Shown here piece after piece: positions 40,604 to 60,315 of a stretch of DNA of 64,000 bases. The stretch covers positions 405,338 through 469,337 of the forward strand of contig CAVSIO010000002.1 of the NCBI GenBank assembly GCA_963728095.1, written 5' to 3'. The position numbers were made by a program, and so were the translations under genes. The first letter of the stretch is position 1, and each line of letters begins with the position of its first letter. Origin of the DNA: an uncultured Thermoleophilia bacterium (GTDB taxonomy: Bacteria; Actinomycetota; Thermoleophilia; Gaiellales; Gaiellaceae). A model generated the notes under the pieces. The model saw only the letters and a program-made list of their open reading frames with translations. It did not search any database and was not told where the DNA came from.

Positions 40604-41359
40604 ATGAGCGCCGCCTTTCTCGTCGCCTCCGCGTTCCTGGCGAGCGCCGTCGAGATGGTGGAGGCGCTGACGATCGTGCTCGCCGCCGGGCTCGCGCGCG
40701 GCTGGCGCTCGTCGCTGACCGGCGTCGGGGCGGCCGCGGTCGCGCTCGCCGTCGTCGTCGCCGCGCTCGGTCCGGCGCTCACCGTCGTCCCGCTCGGCGC
40801 GCTGCGGCTCGTCGTCGGCTCGCTCCTGCTCGTGTTCGGGCTGCAGTGGCTGCGCAAGGCGATCCTGCGCGCGAGCGGCTTCAAGGCGCTCCACGACGAG
40901 GACGCGATCTTCACGCGCGAGCTCGAGGAGGCGCGGAGCGCGGGCCACGTGGAGCGGGCGGGGCTCGACTGGTACGGCTTCACGCTTTCCTTCAAAGGCG
41001 TGTTCCTGGAGGGGCTCGAGGTGGCCTTCATCGTGCTCACCTTCGGGAGCACGCAGGGCAGCATCCCGCTCGCGGCGCTCGGCGCGGCCGCCGCGATCGT
41101 CCTCGTCGCCGGCGTGGGCGTCGCGGTGCGCGCCCCGCTGGCGCGCGTGCCGGAGAACGCGATGAAGTTCGCGGTCGGGATCATGCTGACGACCTTCGGG
41201 ATCTTCTGGGGCGCCGAGGGCGCCGGCGCGGACTGGCCCGGCGGGGACGCCGCACTGCCCGGCGTGCTCGCGTTCGTGATCGCATCCTCGCTGCTGCTCG
41301 TCGCCCTGCTGCGGCGGACGCGGCGGGCACTCCCGGTCGCCGCGGGAGCCGAGGCATGA
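40604..41359 (+). CDS. Integral membrane protein (about 6 TM, COG4280-like), intact
   Basis: MSAAFLVASAFLASAVEMVEALTIVLAAG...FLEGLEVAFIVLTFG. Internal two-fold repeat of E-x-x-E/hydrophobic helices. Confidence 0.6.
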   Translation: MSAAFLVASAFLASAVEMVEALTIVLAAGLARGWRSSLTGVGAAAVALAVVVAALGPALTVVPLGALRLVVGSLLLVFGLQWLRKAILRASGFKALHDEDAIFTRELEEARSAGHVERAGLDWYGFTLSFKGVFLEGLEVAFIVLTFGSTQGSIPLAALGAAAAIVLVAGVGVAVRAPLARVPENAMKFAVGIMLTTFGIFWGAEGAGADWPGGDAALPGVLAFVIASSLLLVALLRRTRRALPVAAGAEA

Positions 41360-41565
41360 GCCGGCTCGCCGCCTTCGGACGCTTCTGGTGGAGCTTCGTC
41401 ATCGGCGACGACTGGCTCGCGGCCGCAGGCGTCGCGACGGCGCTCGGCGCGACGGCGCTGCTCGCCACGGAGAAGGTCGCGGCGTGGTGGCTGCTCCCGG
41501 TCGCCGTGGTCGTCGTCCTCTACGCCTCGCTCCGGCGCGCGATCGCGCAGCGGGCCGCGCCGTAG
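41356..41565 (+). CDS. Small membrane protein (69 aa), translationally coupled to the preceding gene
   Basis: ATG at 41356 overlaps stop 41357-41359 (ATGA). MSRLAAFGRFWWSFVIGDDWLAAAGVATALGATALLA...WWLLPVAVVVVLY. Confidence 0.45.
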   Translation: MSRLAAFGRFWWSFVIGDDWLAAAGVATALGATALLATEKVAAWWLLPVAVVVVLYASLRRAIAQRAAP

Positions 41566-41596
41566 TCCCCCGCAGGAGGCGTCGGAGCTTCCGCTG

Positions 41597-42118
41597 ATGG
41601 CCTGCGCCGGCCGGCGGCCGAGGCTTCCGGCTGTGCGGCTTCCTTCGGGACGTCCTTCCTGGCGGCGCCTGCTCGGCTGGAGCGCGCTCGGGCTCGTTTC
41701 CCTCTTCCTGCTCGCGCAGGTGGTGCCCTACGGGCGCAACCACTCGAATCCTGCCGTGACCAAGGAGCCGGCCTGGGACTCGCCCCGCACGCGGGTGCTC
41801 GCCGCACGGGCCTGCTTCGACTGTCACAGCAATCAGACGACGTGGAAGTGGTACTCGAACGTCGCGCCCGTCTCGTGGCTCGTCGCGAGCGACGTCAGCG
41901 GCGGCCGCAGCCAGTTCAACTTCTCGGAGTGGGACAAGCCACAGGACGTGAGCGGCAGCTCACTCGACGAGACGATCCGGGGCGGCTCGATGCCGCCATG
42001 GTTCTACACGATCGTCCACAGCAGCGCGAAGCTCAACGCCGCCGACCGGGAGGCGCTGATCGCCGGCCTCGCCGCGACGCTCGCCGCCTCGCCTCCGGTG
42101 CCCGGTGGCGGCGGCTAG
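41597..42118 (+). CDS. Haem-binding-domain protein (membrane-anchored, CxxCH)
   Basis: TM anchor LLGWSALGLVSLFLLA. CFDCHSN haem c-type motif, followed by WYSNVAPVSWLV and GSMPPWFY. Confidence 0.7.
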   Translation: MACAGRRPRLPAVRLPSGRPSWRRLLGWSALGLVSLFLLAQVVPYGRNHSNPAVTKEPAWDSPRTRVLAARACFDCHSNQTTWKWYSNVAPVSWLVASDVSGGRSQFNFSEWDKPQDVSGSSLDETIRGGSMPPWFYTIVHSSAKLNAADREALIAGLAATLAASPPVPGGGG

Positions 42119-42314
42119 GCCCGCGTCATGCCGCTTGCCCGCGGGCGCCGGCGGAGGCGCCGAGCCCGGCGGCGCGTAGGAGCGCCCGCCGACCCGACGC
42201 GCCCGGGGTTCGTTCGGTGCGCGAGCGGGCAGGATCAGGCCGAAGCACGTCTCGGAGCCGTCCCCGTGACGTGACGACCAACCGATGCGAGCGAGACGTC
42301 GCCCAGCGCGCACA

Positions 42315-45214
42315 ATGTCCGCCCGCGAGCCTGTCGGGCTCTCCTACGTCTACCTCGGCCTCGGCGCGATCGCCGTCGCGGCGTACCACTTCGTCGGGCC
42401 CGCCCCTCAGACGATCGTCTGGGACGCGCTCGGCTACAGCGCGGTCGCGGCGATCGTCGGCGCCACGCTTCGCCGGCGGCCGACGGTGGCGGCCGCCTGG
42501 TATCTGTTCGCCGCCGCCGTCTTCTGCAACGTCACGGGCGACGCGATCGACGGCGCCTATGCCCAGGTCACCGGCCGCGAGGTTCCGCTGCCGTACTACT
42601 CGGACGTCTTCTCCATCGCGAGCTACGTCCTGCTCGTCGCGGGCGTGGTCGGCTTGGCGAGGGAGGTCGGTCACGGCCTGTCCTTCCCCGACCTGGCCGA
42701 GGCGGGAGTCTACGCGGCCGGTGTCGCGCTGCTCGCGTGGGATCCCCTCGTGGGCGACCTCGGGCACCAGGCCGGCGTCACGACGCTCGGGCACGCCGTG
42801 CTCCTCACGCACCCGGCCGGCGACGTCCTCGTCCTCGCCGTCCTCGGTCTCCTCGCCGCCGCCGGCGGGTGGCGACACGCATGGGTCCGGCTGCTCGCAG
42901 CCGGGCTCGTCTCGTTCCTCGTGGCCGACGTCCTCCACGCGACGGCCTTCGCCTCCTACTCGCGCGGCTCCGCCGTCGACACCGGCTGGCTCTGCGCCTA
43001 CGTGCTCTTCGGAGCGGCTGCGCTCCAGCCGCACCGTCGCGCTGTCGAGCGGGGTGGGGAGCGCCCCCTGTACGCCGGCTGGAGGCGCGCCGGCCTGGTC
43101 GCGGCGATCCTCGCCGCGATCGGCCTGATCTTCGAGGACGCCGCCACCGGCGAGACCCTGACGTGGGCGGAAGCCGGGCTCACCGCAACCCTGATCGGGC
43201 TCGTCGTGCTGCGGCTCGTGATGGGCATGCGCGACTTCGAGCGCGCGAACGAGACCGAGCGCGCCGCGCGGAGCGCGCTCGAGCAGTCGCACCTCGAGCT
43301 CGCGGCGGCGGAGGAGCGCTTCCGCTCGCTCGCCGAGAACGCGACCGACGTCATTCTCCGCCGGCCGCCGAACCTCGACGATCCCTACGACTACGTGAGC
43401 CCGGCGATTTTCCCGATGACGGGGTACACCCCTCAGGAGCTCTGCACCACGCCCGGCATCCTGCGCACGATCGTCCATCCAGACGACATCCCGCTCCTCG
43501 CCGGCCTCGCGAACACGGAAGTCCTCGCGTCGATCCTGATCCGGTGGATCCGAAAGGACGGGGGGACGGTCTGGACGGACGGACGCGGATCGCTCATCAC
43601 GGATGAGCACGGAGCGCCCACGGTGCAGGCGGTCGTCCGCGACGTCACGGAGCGCGTCCTCGCGGAGGAGGAGCTCCGCCGCAGCGGGGAGCGGTTCCGG
43701 AACGTCGTCGAGCAGTCGTTCGACGCCGTCTCGATCGTCGATGCGGAGGGCGTGTTCCGCTTCCAGAACCGGGCGCTCACGACGCTTCTCGGCTACGAGG
43801 TGGACGATGTCCTCGGCACGAGCGCTTCGACCTCGTGCATCCGGACGACGTCCAGTTGCTGGCCGCCAGCCTCGCGAGCGTCCTTGCGGCTCCGGACGGA
43901 CAGGTGCAGACCACGTTCCGCATGCGTCACAGCGATGGGAGCTGGCGCACGATGGAGGGGATCGGCCAGAACCTCCTCGGCGTTCCCGGCCTCGACGGCA
44001 TCCTCGTCACGAGCCGCGACGTCACCGAGCGTCAGCTCGCCGACGAACGCCTGCGTGCGAGCGAGGAGCGCTTCCGGACCGCGTTCGACAACGCGCCGAT
44101 CGGGGTCGCCACGATGACGCTCGACGGCGCCTTCGAGTCGGTCAACCCGGCGCTCGCAACGCTTCTGGGGCTCGAGTCGAGCGAGCTCGAGGGACGGCGC
44201 ATAACGGAGTTCGTCCCGGACGCGGACCTGGCAGAGGTCGCCGCGAGACTCCAGCACGTGATCGAGACGGGCGAGCCGCTGGTCGGCCTCGAGAGCCGAG
44301 CGCTCACGGCCCGGGCCGAGGAGATCTCGCTCCTGGTCAGCGCCGCGCTCATCCACGACGCGGCCGAAGCGCCGAGCCTCATCCTCGTCGAGGTGCTCGA
44401 CGTCACGGCGAGCAAGCGAGCCGAGACCGAGCGGGAGCAGGCCTTCGAGCTCGTGAACACGCAGAACGCGCTGCTGGCCGAGGCGGACAGGCTGAAGGAC
44501 GAGCTCATCTCCGTCGTCTCGCACGACCTGCGCACGCCGCTCACGTCGATCATGGGCTACCTCGAGCTCGTCATGACCGAGGAGTCCGGTGCGCTCAACG
44601 ACGAGCAGCGGCAGTTCCTCGAGGTCGTCCGGAGAAATGCCGACCGCCTGCTCGCGCTCGTGAACGACCTCCTGTTCATCTCGAGAACCGAGCAGGGGGC
44701 GGTGGCGCTCGATCTGACGGAGGTCGACCTGGCGGCCGTGGCCGTCGAGGCGATCGAAGCGCTCGAGCCGCAGGCCGCCGAGAGCGAGGTCGAGCTGATC
44801 CTGAGGGCAGAGGCGATTCCCACCGCCCTCGCCGACCGTGCGCGCATGGCCGACGTGCTCGCGAACCTGCTCACGAATGCCTTGAAGTTCACCGCCGCGG
44901 GCGGAACGGTCGAGACCAGGCTCACCTCGACGGCCACGCACGTGGTGCTCGAGGTGGCCGACAGCGGCGTCGGGATCGCGGAAGCCGACCAGCAGCACCT
45001 GTTCCAGCGCTTCTTCCGGAGCGCCCGCACCCAGGCGACGCCGGGGATCGGGCTGGGGCTCTCGATCGTCAAGGCGATCGTCGACGCCCACGGCGGGGAC
45101 ATCTCGCTGACGAGCCGCGTGAACGAGGGGACGACGTTCCGGGTGGAGATCCCGCTGGTGCCGCCCGCCCCCGGCGAGAGCCCGGAGCCGGTGGGTGCGG
45201 CCGCGGGCGGCTAG
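42315..45214 (+). CDS. Membrane-bound multi-PAS sensor histidine kinase, one frame break near 43825
   Basis: ATG at 42315. N-terminal region of about 8 TM. PAS repeats: EERFRSLAENATDVI, GERFRNVVEQSFDAV, EERFRTAFDNAPIGV. H-box: VVSHDLRTPLTSI. N-box: LANLLTNALKF. G-boxes: DSGVGI and GIGLGLSIV. Confidence 0.88.
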
Positions 45215-45221
45215 AGGCGAG

Positions 45222-45245
45222 GAATCGGCCCGCCTGGACTCGAAC
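45222..45245 (-). repeat. Displaced copy of the 3' end (acceptor + T arm) of tRNA-Met: att-like repeat
   Basis: See the islet feature. The match covers the 3'-terminal ~21 nt of the tRNA plus 3 nt of flank. Confidence 0.6.
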
Positions 45246-45371
45246 ATCCCCGCAAATAGGCGTCTTCTTGCGCTCGTGGGGCGCCGCTGGGGTACGCCAC
45301 GCACGCGCACGGTTCACGAAGGAAGCGGTTGGGCGCCTGCGAGCAACCTGTGCGGCCCTAGACCGATCCGC

Positions 45372-45565
45372 TCAGCGTGAGCCTGTCGGTGGCGGAATCC
45401 CGAGGTCGGCGCAGATCTTCCGGGCAAGGCGAAAGTCGATCTCTCGGTGGCGCGGGACGGCCGTCGAACCCTCCGCGTCAAAGCCCCAGAAGCTGTGGTT
45501 GCGCCCTCGCGGAGCAGTCGTACGCCGTGGCTCCGGAGGTGACGCTCGAGATCGCGGCGCTTCAC
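45372..45565 (-). CDS. hicA: HicA-family mRNA interferase toxin, one missing base (194 nt)
   Basis: GTG at 45565. VKRRDLERHLRSHGVRLLREG, then (frame shift) NHSFWGFDAEGSTAVPRHREIDFRLARKICADLGIPPP, ending at TGA 45372-45374. Confidence 0.75.
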
Positions 45566-45792
45566 GCGCCGATGAACAGCTCGAGCGGCTCGCTGTCGGT
45601 CGCTTCGCTCACCTCGGGATGCCCGCCGAAGCGGAGCTCGAGGATCCCCCGGAGAGCGTCGATCACATTCGCCCGCGCCTCCTCGCGAGTGCGTCCCTGG
45701 CTGTGGACGCCGGACACTTCGGGGATCGAGGCGACCACCCAGCCTTCCTCGCCCTGTTCGTAAACGATCGTGACCTTGAGCGGATCGCTCAT
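45562..45792 (-). CDS. hicB: HicB-like antitoxin (short, UPF0150-type fold only)
   Basis: ATG at 45792. MSDPLKVTIVYEQGEEGWVVASIPEVSGVHSQGRTREEARANVIDALRGILE. Its stop overlaps the hicA start (GTGA). Confidence 0.75.
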   Translation of the reverse strand: MSDPLKVTIVYEQGEEGWVVASIPEVSGVHSQGRTREEARANVIDALRGILELRFGGHPEVSEATDSEPLELFIGA

Positions 45793-45973
45793 CGAGGACA
45801 CCGTAGCGGAGCGCGTGGCTCCCGTCTCACGCCGCAGCGAGTTGGTACGTCGACGAACCAGGCGGCCAAGCCTTACCGGGCCGGCGGGTAGCACCCCTGA
45901 ACGGCCGGGCTGGGAACCTCCGGCCATGCGACAGGCGTACTCTCTTCGTGACGATCACGTCGACTCGGCGGAT

Positions 45974-47206
45974 ATGAAGCGCCTGCTGTTCTTGACGGCC
46001 CTGCTGCTTGTCCTACCTGGGGCGACGGGTGCGACCGCACGCTCTTCGACCACCACGGCGCGGCAACCGCTGTTGGCAACCCGCGACGGCACGACGGCCT
46101 CGCGGCTCTTCTACGCCGATCCGGTCTCGCTCCAGCCCATTCCTGCAAGATCGCTCCATCTCGATTTCCATTGGGGCGACTTCCTCCGCTCGCCGAACGG
46201 TTCGTTACTCGCCCTGAGTCGCAACGACGCGCCCGAGTTGCGCTTCGTCCGCCTTCACGGACTGCGGTTCGCGGGAGCGATGTCGTTCACGGAGGGACAG
46301 TTCGTCCGTCTGGTGTCCTGGCCCTCACCGCATCTGCTCCTCGCGCTCGTTGACTCCTCGCAGGTGCTGGCGATCGACCCGACCGCCCGGAAGGTGCTCT
46401 GGCGGCGCTCGATCGACGGCTCCGTGATCGACATCCAGCCAGCGCCCGGCGGCGTCGTCGCACTTGCCGCGCCGGCCGCCAGAATCGGTCCATCCAGGAT
46501 CGTCGTGCTCGGAACGGACGGCTCGCGGCGGTCCGTCTTGCTCGAACGGGTGCTTGCAGGCTTCCATCGCAACCAGAGCTGGCAGGACTTCACAGGCACG
46601 ATACGCACCCCGGGACTCGCAGTCGACGCCGGTGGCAAGCGCGCCTACGTGGTTGGGGCGAGCGAGCCGGTCGCGCAGATCGACTTCGCCTCGATGCGCG
46701 TCAGCTACCACGGAGGCGACCGAGGACTGGCAAAGGCGGCGCGCGGACCGCGACGACAGGCGACCTGGCTCGGCAACGGACTGCTCGCCGTCAGCGGCAC
46801 CGACTCGAGCATCAGCACCGACGTGCAGTCGAAGGTCCAGGAAAGCATCACCCCGAGCGGGTTGGTGTTGATCAACACGCGCACCTGGACGAGTCGGAGC
46901 GTGCAACGGAACGCGGACACGGCGACAACCGTGGACCGCCTGCTGCTCGCCTATCGCTCGGGCTACGACTCGGGCACCAACGCTCGCGTCGGCTCAGGCC
47001 TCACCATCTACCGACTCGATGGAAGGCCCTTCGCCCACATCCTCGGCCGCACGCCCATCTCTCGGGTTCAGGTCCAGGGCGGTCTCGCCTACGCGTGGCT
47101 GACCAGGGGAAGTGGACCGTCCGACCAGGTGGCTGTCGTCGATCTCCGCTCCGGCCGGATCCTCGCTAGGGAGACCCGCTCGATCGTGCTGCTCACCGGC
47201 TCCTGA
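45974..47206 (+). CDS. Secreted hypothetical protein (410 aa), lower GC than the surroundings
   Basis: ATG at 45974. Signal MKRLLFLTALLLVLPGATGATA. Repeats of the type VLAIDPTARKVLWRRSIDG suggest a beta-propeller-like fold. Uninterrupted. Confidence 0.65.
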   Translation: MKRLLFLTALLLVLPGATGATARSSTTTARQPLLATRDGTTASRLFYADPVSLQPIPARSLHLDFHWGDFLRSPNGSLLALSRNDAPELRFVRLHGLRFAGAMSFTEGQFVRLVSWPSPHLLLALVDSSQVLAIDPTARKVLWRRSIDGSVIDIQPAPGGVVALAAPAARIGPSRIVVLGTDGSRRSVLLERVLAGFHRNQSWQDFTGTIRTPGLAVDAGGKRAYVVGASEPVAQIDFASMRVSYHGGDRGLAKAARGPRRQATWLGNGLLAVSGTDSSISTDVQSKVQESITPSGLVLINTRTWTSRSVQRNADTATTVDRLLLAYRSGYDSGTNARVGSGLTIYRLDGRPFAHILGRTPISRVQVQGGLAYAWLTRGSGPSDQVAVVDLRSGRILARETRSIVLLTGS

Positions 47207-47356
47207 GGCGCGCTCTCGCCGCGCCCCTCTGGCGATCGGCCGAGCGGCCCGTTTCCGTGTGGACAACGATGGGTGCACGCCGCGCACAACGGCGATCCCC
47301 GCGGCACACTCGTCCCGCTCAACCATGCGATTTCCGCTCCGGGCGGCGGTGTCGAA

Positions 47357-47430
47357 TGGGCCCGCCTGGATTCGAACCAGGGACCAAGGGATTATGAGTC
47401 CCCTGCTCTGACCAGCTGAGCTACGGGCCC
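47357..47430 (-). tRNA. tRNA with anticodon CAU (Met; lysidine-modified Ile2 not excluded)
   Basis: Cloverleaf read by hand: GGGCCCG-TA-GCTC-AGCTGGTCA-GAGC-A-GGGGA-CTCATAA-TCCCT-TGGTC-CCTGG-TTCGAAT-CCAGG-CGGGCCC-A. CCA is not encoded. Confidence 0.9.
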
Positions 47431-47565
47431 GCTCGGACGGAGCGTACCGTGGCCGCAGGCGCGGATCAGGGTCTCCTGAGGGAGGGGCTTCCACGGTTGC
47501 GCCGGCGGCGGCATCGGCAACAATAGGGCGGTTCCCTGGAGCAAACGAGCGAGGTGGGCGGCGAG

Positions 47566-59948: not shown

Positions 59949-59954
59949 GTGAAG

Positions 59955-60315
59955 TGGAGGCGGCGGGAATCGAACCCGCGTCCGCAGCCGCACCGGCTGA
60001 GCGTCTACAAGCATAGGCTGCCCTTTGTCTCACCCGCCGGCCGGAGTGCAGCCGCCCTACCGACGGGCCAGCCATCCTTGAGTGTCGCGCCTCCGACGAT
60101 TGGCTCTTCTTCGGCGCCGAGCCCGCTGGTTAGCGGCCGGCCGGGTCGCGGGCAGCCCCGGCGGGCCGTCGCTGGATCTAAGTTGCCTTAGGCAGCGATT
60201 GCGAGTTCGTTCTGATTCGCATTTGGTGTTTGCCGGTGGATTTACGAGGCCAACCGGCGACCTCGGCTTGCAGCTCATCCGGATGGATCGACCACGTCGA
60301 AACCAGGTCGCCCCC
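59955..60315 (-). ncRNA. ssrA: tmRNA (ssrA), 361 nt
   Basis: 5' end GGGGGCGACCTGGTTTCGACG... 3' end ...CGCGGGTTCGATTCCCGCCGCCTCCA. The acceptor stem has the G3:U70 alanine identity pair. The tag reading frame GCG AAT CAG AAC GAA CTC GCA ATC GCT GCC TAA (60220-60188) gives ANQNELAIAA. Confidence 0.92.

Follow-up and report, generated by a model that had tools for sequence, protein, structure and literature searches.

A stretch of 64,000 nucleotides (nt) from an uncultured Gaiellaceae bacterium (contig CAVSIO010000002.1; here called the window) carries a small islet directly 3′ of a tRNA-Met gene. We conclude that this islet (45225-47377) is most probably the relic of a family of small integrating elements that is common in Gaiellaceae, and that it has lost its integrase and would now be immobile; we give this reading a probability of roughly 0.8. 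It is supported because the islet has its arms and its hicB-hicA pair in common with islands that carry an integrase, and because related genomes with an empty site exist. The first-pass annotation of this DNA had proposed a minimal or decayed tRNA island of about 2.1 kb that had lost its integrase, and the comparative loci described below support that proposal. Listed from the tRNA gene to the far end, with att for attachment site and aa for amino acids, the features are:

47357-47430, minus strand: tRNA-Met gene (anticodon CAU), intact (ARAGORN and Rfam RF00005, 73 bits)
47357-47377, minus strand: tRNA-side att core, the final 21 nt of the tRNA from T-loop to discriminator base, GTTCGAATCCAGGCGGGCCCA
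47242-47356, minus strand: tRNA-side arm, ~115 nt, holding GAAATCGCATGGTTGAGCGGGAC (47312-47334) and a degenerate double 12-mer motif (47255-47280)
45974-47206, plus strand: open reading frame (ORF) 410, the only cargo gene, for a predicted secreted, probable beta-propeller protein (profile, AlphaFold2 and Foldseek)
45562-45792, minus strand: hicB-like antitoxin gene, 76 aa, with an N-terminal UPF0150/HicB-like domain only (Pfam, both scores below cut-off)
45372-45565, minus strand: hicA-like toxin gene, frame-broken, repaired product 64 aa (Pfam HicA_toxin, below cut-off)
45246-45310, minus strand: far-side arm, with ATCCCCGCAAATAGGCGT (45246-45263) adjoining the core and a degenerate motif at 45274-45297, aligned with loci L028, L077 and L061
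45225-45245, minus strand: far-side att core, a probable displaced copy of the tRNA 3′ end, GTTCGAGTCCAGGCGGGCCGA, matching at 19/21 positions

The islet is bounded by a direct repeat of the tRNA 3′ end. The 24-mer GAATGGGCCCGCCTGGATTCGAAC (47354-47377), which comprises the end of the tRNA from T-loop to discriminator base (21 nt) and 3 nt of trailer, has one other copy, at 45222-45245 on the same strand and with two mismatches (22/24); the pair was also recovered as repeat family D12. No chance match at ≤3 mismatches arose in 100 dinucleotide-preserving shuffles. The 3′ end of the tRNA is directed toward the second copy, as shown by the ARAGORN and Rfam calls and their coordinates, and that copy, its three flanking matching nt included, starts 8 nt past the stop codon of a histidine kinase gene. 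Both the same-orientation 22/24 repeat and the facing tRNA end had been noted at first pass and were confirmed, while the three flanking nt, then counted as part of the repeat, were not upheld as such. In four relatives the identity between core copies ends at the tRNA 3′ end, so the att core is 21 nt long and the three additional matching nt in the window are probably due to chance. The tRNA-side 21-mer also delimits islands in L028, L077, L061, L082, L107 and L111 (L numbers denote loci in a comparative set of ~85 related Gaiellaceae loci), and in L028, L077 and L111, although not in L029, exact 21-nt repeats stand at both island ends. An A-to-G difference in the far core of the window corresponds to the T-loop base of the tRNA in L027, a relative with an empty site; this fits a far copy that is the displaced original tRNA end, and is only suggestive. 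The tRNA itself has a G-C pair at positions 1:72, read from its sequence, and is therefore not of the initiator type; its identity may be Met or Ile2.

A rival account would attribute the repeat to chance or to a local duplication of part of the tRNA 3′ end, with hicBA and ORF410 as ordinary chromosomal genes. The lack of an integrase in the islet, its only weakly atypical bulk composition and the position of ORF410 homologues elsewhere among core chromosomal genes (for instance, in L001, with guaA on one side and rplM on the other) would all agree with it. We nevertheless consider this account highly improbable: the 100 shuffles exclude a chance match, and both flanks of the repeat carry arms that are common to integrase-bearing islands in other species, in both orientations of the tRNA.

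The locus itself is variable across relatives. The yjbQ/UPF0047 gene retrieved 80 loci at 85-93% protein identity, all from metagenome-assembled genomes, with taxon labels of Gaiellaceae, Gaiellales, Thermoleophilia or, more broadly, Actinomycetes/Actinomycetota. An intact homologue of the tRNA-Met gene lies near yjbQ in 68 of the 80. Its 3′ end points toward yjbQ in 31 loci, where the spacer measures 83-9171 nt; in the other orientation, which is that of the window, the 5′ end points toward yjbQ (37 loci) and the spacer is mostly 73-125 nt. When the 170 nt 3′ of the tRNA were aligned, the similarity between nearly all species ended with the terminal CCCA. Thus, variable DNA builds up 3′ of the tRNA, in either orientation, and these sequence comparisons mark the tRNA-Met/yjbQ locus as a hot spot for insertion. 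A second 21-nt core (≤3 mismatches) bounds inserts of 5.85 kb in L028, 7.5 kb in L077, 2.5 kb in L061, 2.6 kb in L082, 4.0 kb in L050 and 9.5 kb in L063; core-bounded islands also occur in L107 (9.5 kb) and L111/L112 (4.4 kb). An Rfam scan between the tRNA and yjbQ returned no riboswitch or other RNA at threshold.

Presence/absence polymorphism with empty sites was found at the species level, in L027, L073, L048 and L068. L027 has the same left gene block and tRNA orientation as the window and no insert: from a small membrane-protein gene (41357-41565 in the window) to the tRNA 3′ end it has 295 nt, whereas this interval measures 5791 nt in the window. In L073 and L048 both flanks are collinear and neither side of the tRNA, which lies in the opposite orientation, has an insert, and L068, also without insert and with the tRNA reversed, has a different left-hand sequence before the tRNA. 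The window arms are absent at the empty sites of L027, L073 and L048. An empty strain-level site was found neither by a metagenome scan nor by a search of 5.8 billion proteins with the left-flank kinase, whose best homologue was 55% identical and whose two best homologues sit in unrelated contexts. Of the comparison to which the first-pass annotation had pointed, an empty tRNA-Met site in relatives, the species-level part was obtained and the strain-level junction was not.

L027 also lacks another 3.7 kb, left of the islet, that holds a 173-aa ORF and the histidine kinase gene, and the islet is therefore the att-delimited part of a larger lineage-specific stretch. Could the 2.1 kb be only the tRNA-proximal unit of one larger insertion (41566-47356), with the 173-aa ORF and the PAS kinase included, built up by stepwise accretion? 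This is a possible reading that we nonetheless find doubtful, and it would be compatible with the islet being an element relic rather than exclusive of it. The 5791 nt of the window against 295 nt in L027 argue for it, as do the absence of a close orthologue for the kinase (best 55%, and in other contexts elsewhere) and a mild dip in GC content that takes in the kinase gene. Against this, the region 41000-45221 contains no further same-strand copy of the core at ≤6 mismatches and no arm motif, and the GC content at third codon positions (GC3) of the kinase gene is 0.93, as in the host. The 173-aa ORF also occurs 5′ of the tRNA in L010 and so is probably native.

Two other features of this neighbourhood were recorded. 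The PAS/HisKA/HATPase kinase (42285-45214) is absent from all 80 related loci and has a host-like GC3; a second, older att copy was searched for to its left, and none was found. The tRNA-Met gene, together with ~160-230 nt of trailer, is inverted between collinear species (L027:9649-9880 versus L068:9731-9912; also L073, L048 and L034), and recombination between inverted att cores is one possibility for how this came about.

The islands of the relatives carry the integrase that the window lacks. Homologous PF00589 tyrosine integrases are encoded in L028 (6713-7783), L077 (972-2081) and L029 (8253-9386), and a fourth homologous integrase lies at tRNA-Met in L111/L112. The family is large, with 2785 proteins at E ≤1e-30 and more than 100 clusters at 78-97% identity. 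A gene for an XRE-type helix-turn-helix (HTH) regulator adjoins the family integrase, and no relaxase, coupling protein, replication, conjugation or mobilisation gene was recognised in the intact relatives. A family integrase (82% identity) and the 26-nt arm motif of the family, described below (one mismatch, 2395-2420), also adjoin a tRNA-Lys(CTT) gene in L110 (1266-2570), so that tRNA-Met is not the only target of the family.

Used as a tblastn query, the family integrase gave no match in 45246-47356 or elsewhere in the 64 kb of the window, and none of the best 120 family integrases lies on the source contig, which is not conclusive. The gaps outside genes in the islet measure 126, 181 and 150 nt and are therefore too short for an excisionase gene. 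The islet thus holds neither integrase nor excisionase, just as the first reading of the DNA had it. Its homology to family members ends at the start of hicB (~45810) and resumes at 47242, so the segment unique to the window consists of ORF410 and short flanks. L061 encodes residues 291-355 of the integrase only, and may represent an intermediate state of integrase loss.

The two arms tie the islet to these islands. By blastn, the tRNA trailers of L028, L029 and L061 match the tRNA-side arm (47242-47356) at 78-84% identity, and a shorter stretch of the window (47312-47435) is 85% identical to L077. This type of trailer is found in 7 of ~70 loci: the window, L028, L029, L061 and L077 and, more distantly, L025 and L062. 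Since these seven include both tRNA orientations, the trailer is element DNA and not host DNA. At the other end, the block of the window that comprises the core, ATCCCCGCAAATAGGCGT, hicA and hicB (45223-45810) matches the far island ends of L028, L077 and L107 at 79-82% identity.

Each arm also holds a copy of a 26-nt motif, GCGTGCCCCCACCGGTGCCCCCACGG, which consists of two tandem 12-mers (GTGCCCCCACNG twice). In the sense of the tRNA, the motif lies ~95-125 nt past the tRNA-side core and ~45-70 nt ahead of the far-side core. It is present with 0-1 mismatch at both positions in L028, L061 and L111, with 1-2 mismatches in L107 and with three in L077. L029 has a perfect copy on the tRNA side only, and neither a far-side core nor a far-side motif was found there. 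At ≤7 mismatches, the motif has only four matches in 1.3 Mb of other loci. Because it lies on both sides of the core, we infer from its position and conservation that the double 12-mer is a candidate arm-type binding site for the integrase. The window copies are degenerate: a motif search gave 5/26 mismatches on the tRNA side (47255-47280), and the far-side copy (45274-45297) has four substitutions and two single-C deletions, both in runs of five C, that could be sequencing errors. In other family members the DNA around the motif has diverged more than the motif itself. Across the element, hicBA DNA is 81-85% identical in every pair of loci, and the motif of the window has diverged by this same amount; the arms of the window copy therefore seem to be no longer under constraint, as far as such small numbers can indicate.

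These data are consistent with the following scheme. Family members would insert by tyrosine-integrase recombination between a site on the element and the tRNA-Met gene. The element site would comprise the 21-nt core, identical to the tRNA from T-loop to 3′ end, with the double 12-mer motif on each side. Insertion would rebuild the tRNA and leave its old 3′ end beyond the opposite end of the element, giving the direct repeat. The copy in the window would later have lost its integrase and HTH-regulator module, by deletion or replacement, while retaining the two att sites, a single secreted beta-propeller cargo gene and, at the far end, hicB-hicA. Lacking an integrase of its own, and with drifting arms and core, it is most likely fixed in place.

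Whether it could still be moved by others has to be considered, as cis-mobilizable elements (CIMEs) arise by decay of integrative conjugative or integrative mobilizable elements (ICEs or IMEs), with the integration genes lost and the left and right att sites (attL and attR) retained (PMC5704250). The islet would then be an att-flanked cassette that a related integrase can still excise, move or capture in trans, with HicAB favouring its retention. Integrase-less members do recur, in L107 (9.5 kb, arms with 1-2 mismatches) and in L061 (2.5 kb, with a PIN toxin, an integrase stump and 0-1 mismatch in the arms), and the family integrase is very abundant in the same habitats. The window copy, however, is the most degraded that we saw: its core has mismatches at 2/21 positions, and identity in the acceptor stem is broken by one of them; each of its arm motifs has 4-5 substitutions per 26 nt, matching the general 81-85% DNA identity of the element; the 64-kb window has no integrase; and none of the best 120 family integrases lies on the source contig. 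Continued mobilisation of the islet is thus unlikely. It is similarly improbable, in our view, that the integrase-less, att-flanked mini-cassettes of the window, L061 and L107, which would each combine one or two cargo genes with a toxin-antitoxin pair, make up a functional class of hitch-hikers in Gaiellaceae that use the family integrase in trans to shuttle secreted-protein genes between tRNA sites.

The islet nevertheless resembles CIMEs in its loss of integration genes, its retention of attL and attR and its intact relatives at the same site, and the tandem or partial copies in L107 and L028 are a further likeness. It differs in that its att sites are degraded and its mobilisation is hypothetical. 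What was recognised in the intact relatives is an integrase with an XRE-type HTH regulator and toxin-antitoxin genes, but no conjugation or mobilisation genes, so that descent from an ICE or IME is likewise hypothetical. Another close comparison is with the islands that tyrosine integrases insert at tRNA 3′ ends, with T-loop-type att cores and lambda-like arm sites. As in these, a direct repeat of the tRNA end bounds the element, which lies 3′ of an intact tRNA gene; relatives encode PF00589 integrases; both arms bear repeated motifs beside the core; and related genomes have empty sites. In contrast to such islands, the window copy has no integrase or excisionase, is only 2.1 kb long and contains three genes.

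Several points weigh against the interpretation of the islet as an integrase-less element relic. Its deviation in bulk GC content is weak and not confined to the islet: GC content is 68.0% in the islet and 67.7% in the ORF410 gene, compared to a mean of 72.4% for the window (standard deviation 2.2%, equal-sized windows), which places the islet at the 5th percentile, and the mild dip spans ~43.2-48.2 kb, past both repeats, taking in the histidine kinase gene and yjbQ. The assembly is rich in indels, and part of the apparent decay (the C deletions in the far motif, the break in hicA) may be artefact. No strain-level empty site was found that would show the exact pre-insertion junction. ORF410 homologues elsewhere are not associated with islands. 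Finally, the role of the arm motif in integrase binding is read from position and conservation only.

The GC contrast that had been noted at first pass for the 410-aa gene is far smaller than then stated; the figure of 60-63% was too low. Third-position GC sets the islet apart more clearly than bulk GC. ORF410 and hicB have GC3 values of 0.825 and 0.844, compared to 0.93 for the kinase gene, 0.97 for yjbQ and 0.98 for an SDR gene, and the island genes of L028 and L077 (0.79-0.92, mostly ~0.8) are like those of the islet. We quote GC3 only for genes with clear homologues; the window-wide GC3 distribution is too noisy, with frameshifts and wrong-strand ORFs. The lowest GC contents of the window occur in the 2-kb bins at 52-54 kb (0.673) and 58-60 kb (0.679). 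A tmRNA gene is at 59954-60315 on the minus strand; tmRNA genes are classical integration targets.

The quality of the assembly bears on how gene breaks can be read. At least eight frameshifts lie in conserved genes of the window (~22200, 23494, 23600, 23790, 23852, ~29100, 49174 and ~52400), as judged against intact homologues from several species, and the PAS histidine kinase gene on the left of the islet likewise falls into two overlapping frames (43835-44117). The assembly thus has frequent indel errors, and apparent pseudogenes in the window are not trustworthy. In hicA, one base is missing between 45501 and 45502 (GGCGGC reads GGCGC). The repaired HicA is 90-92% identical to the intact HicA of L028, L077 and L107, and the codons 3′ of the break show 12-17 synonymous compared to three nonsynonymous differences. 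Given this synonymous excess and the eight or more other frame-broken conserved genes, the break is more likely an assembly indel error or, if real, would be very recent, and should not be read as decay.

The presence of a frame-broken hicA and a hicB between the repeats, as first annotated, was borne out by ORF and Pfam analysis, with sub-threshold scores. The repaired HicA matched Pfam HicA_toxin (PF07927) with E 7.5e-5 and 23.2 bits over 2-58 of 58 profile positions (cut-off 27), and has the His of the G-x-H motif. HicB matched UPF0150 (E 2.5e-5, 24.6 bits, cut-off 27.3) and HicB_lk_antitox (E 1.2e-3, 19.5 bits, cut-off 27). Its matches in the PDB, TTHA1756 and HicB (E 0.04 for HicB), were weak, and NCBIfam and PDB searches gave weak or no added support for either protein. 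Members of its 90% cluster carry the JGI label 'HicB family' or 'HicB family nuclease'. Canonical HicB bears a C-terminal DNA-binding domain; no such domain, whether ribbon-helix-helix or HTH, was detected in the 76 aa by Pfam, PDB or NCBIfam searches. Because the Pfam scores are below cut-off and the short HicB has no detectable DNA-binding domain, the pair is best called HicAB-like, with toxin and antitoxin activities that are predicted. It resembles known HicAB modules in having two small overlapping genes, one HicA-like and one HicB-like (hicB overlaps the start of hicA by 4 nt, GTGA), at the far end of several family islands, and it differs in its order (hicB then hicA), in the 76-aa length of HicB and in its scores, all of which are below the Pfam cut-offs.

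A toxin-antitoxin module recurs at the far end of family members: the window, L028, L077 and L107 have hicBA, L111 has a variant with hicA before hicB, and L061 has a PIN toxin. The MosAT toxin-antitoxin pair stabilises the element SXT. Similarly, the SgiAT pair stabilises the integrated element SGI1 (PMC5704250), and by analogy it is plausible that the HicAB-like pair could help to retain the islet.

The ORF for the 410-aa protein was confirmed between the repeats; the NCBI gene call starts at 45926 and gives 426 aa. Its N-terminus resembles a Sec signal peptide. Searches found 37 homologues, the best at 69% identity, and no Pfam or NCBIfam family matched. It had been described at first as having no nameable family, which holds, while its fold can now be assigned. 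The family profile matched beta-propellers in the PDB (a YVTN surface-layer protein, the hydrazine synthase beta subunit and glutamine cyclotransferase). The AlphaFold2 model, with a predicted local distance difference test (pLDDT) score of 87.8 and a predicted template-modelling (pTM) score of 0.85, is all-beta with 33 strands. Foldseek returned only generic propellers, with template-modelling (TM) scores ≤0.55, a probability of 1.0 to many of them and 10-14% sequence identity; BamB, AztD and NirS were the best single-domain matches. We identified no conserved catalytic or ligand motif. On this modelling, ORF410 is predicted to be a secreted beta-propeller of no specific family, probably eight-bladed. 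Its all-beta model of ~33 strands is like secreted propellers such as BamB, AztD, the NirS d1 domain and YVTN surface-layer repeats, and the protein differs from them in its low similarity, at the TM scores and identities given above, and in belonging to a small family.

No tRNA, core or arm lies near the ORF410 homologues at five loci whose contexts were inspected, which means that ORF410 does not mark the island family. Relaxed tblastn of ORF410 against the cargo genes of other islands gave no match. At L005:442-2456, an ORF410 homologue (64%) lies divergently beside a PIN toxin gene and a small ORF, in a layout like that of hicBA and ORF410 in the window. At L050:7100-8503, a tRNA-Met island encodes a different secreted, propeller-like protein of 467 aa with weak BNR/sortilin matches. 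A secreted propeller beside a toxin-antitoxin pair may be a recurring cargo pattern.

The islet thus has the classic signature of a tRNA-integrated island remnant and is, as such, an ordinary and well-understood genome scar that leaves the current understanding of tRNA-island mechanism unchanged. What is new is the element family in an uncultured soil lineage, with its 21-nt core, candidate arm motif and far-end toxin-antitoxin module. To our knowledge, this family had not been described before in the uncultured Gaiellaceae lineage of the host. Gaiellaceae are a dominant, almost uncultured group of soil actinobacteria, in which this previously uncharacterised family is very abundant, and the islet offers a worked example of how an element decays into an integrase-less remnant. 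It may be of use in annotating islands in metagenome-assembled genomes and in telling real pseudogenes from long-read indel artefacts.

Two relatives have unusual partial copies of the tRNA-Met gene. In L107 (840-885), the left island edge consists of only the 3′ 46 nt of the tRNA, from anticodon loop to 3′ end, and the 840 nt between this edge and the end of the contig contain no intact tRNA, which points to either a tandem array or a tRNA that has lost its 5′ half. In L074 (9414-9693), a full tRNA-Met is followed by two further copies of its first 34 nt, ~103 nt apart, an unusual tandem partial duplication of the 5′ half of the tRNA.

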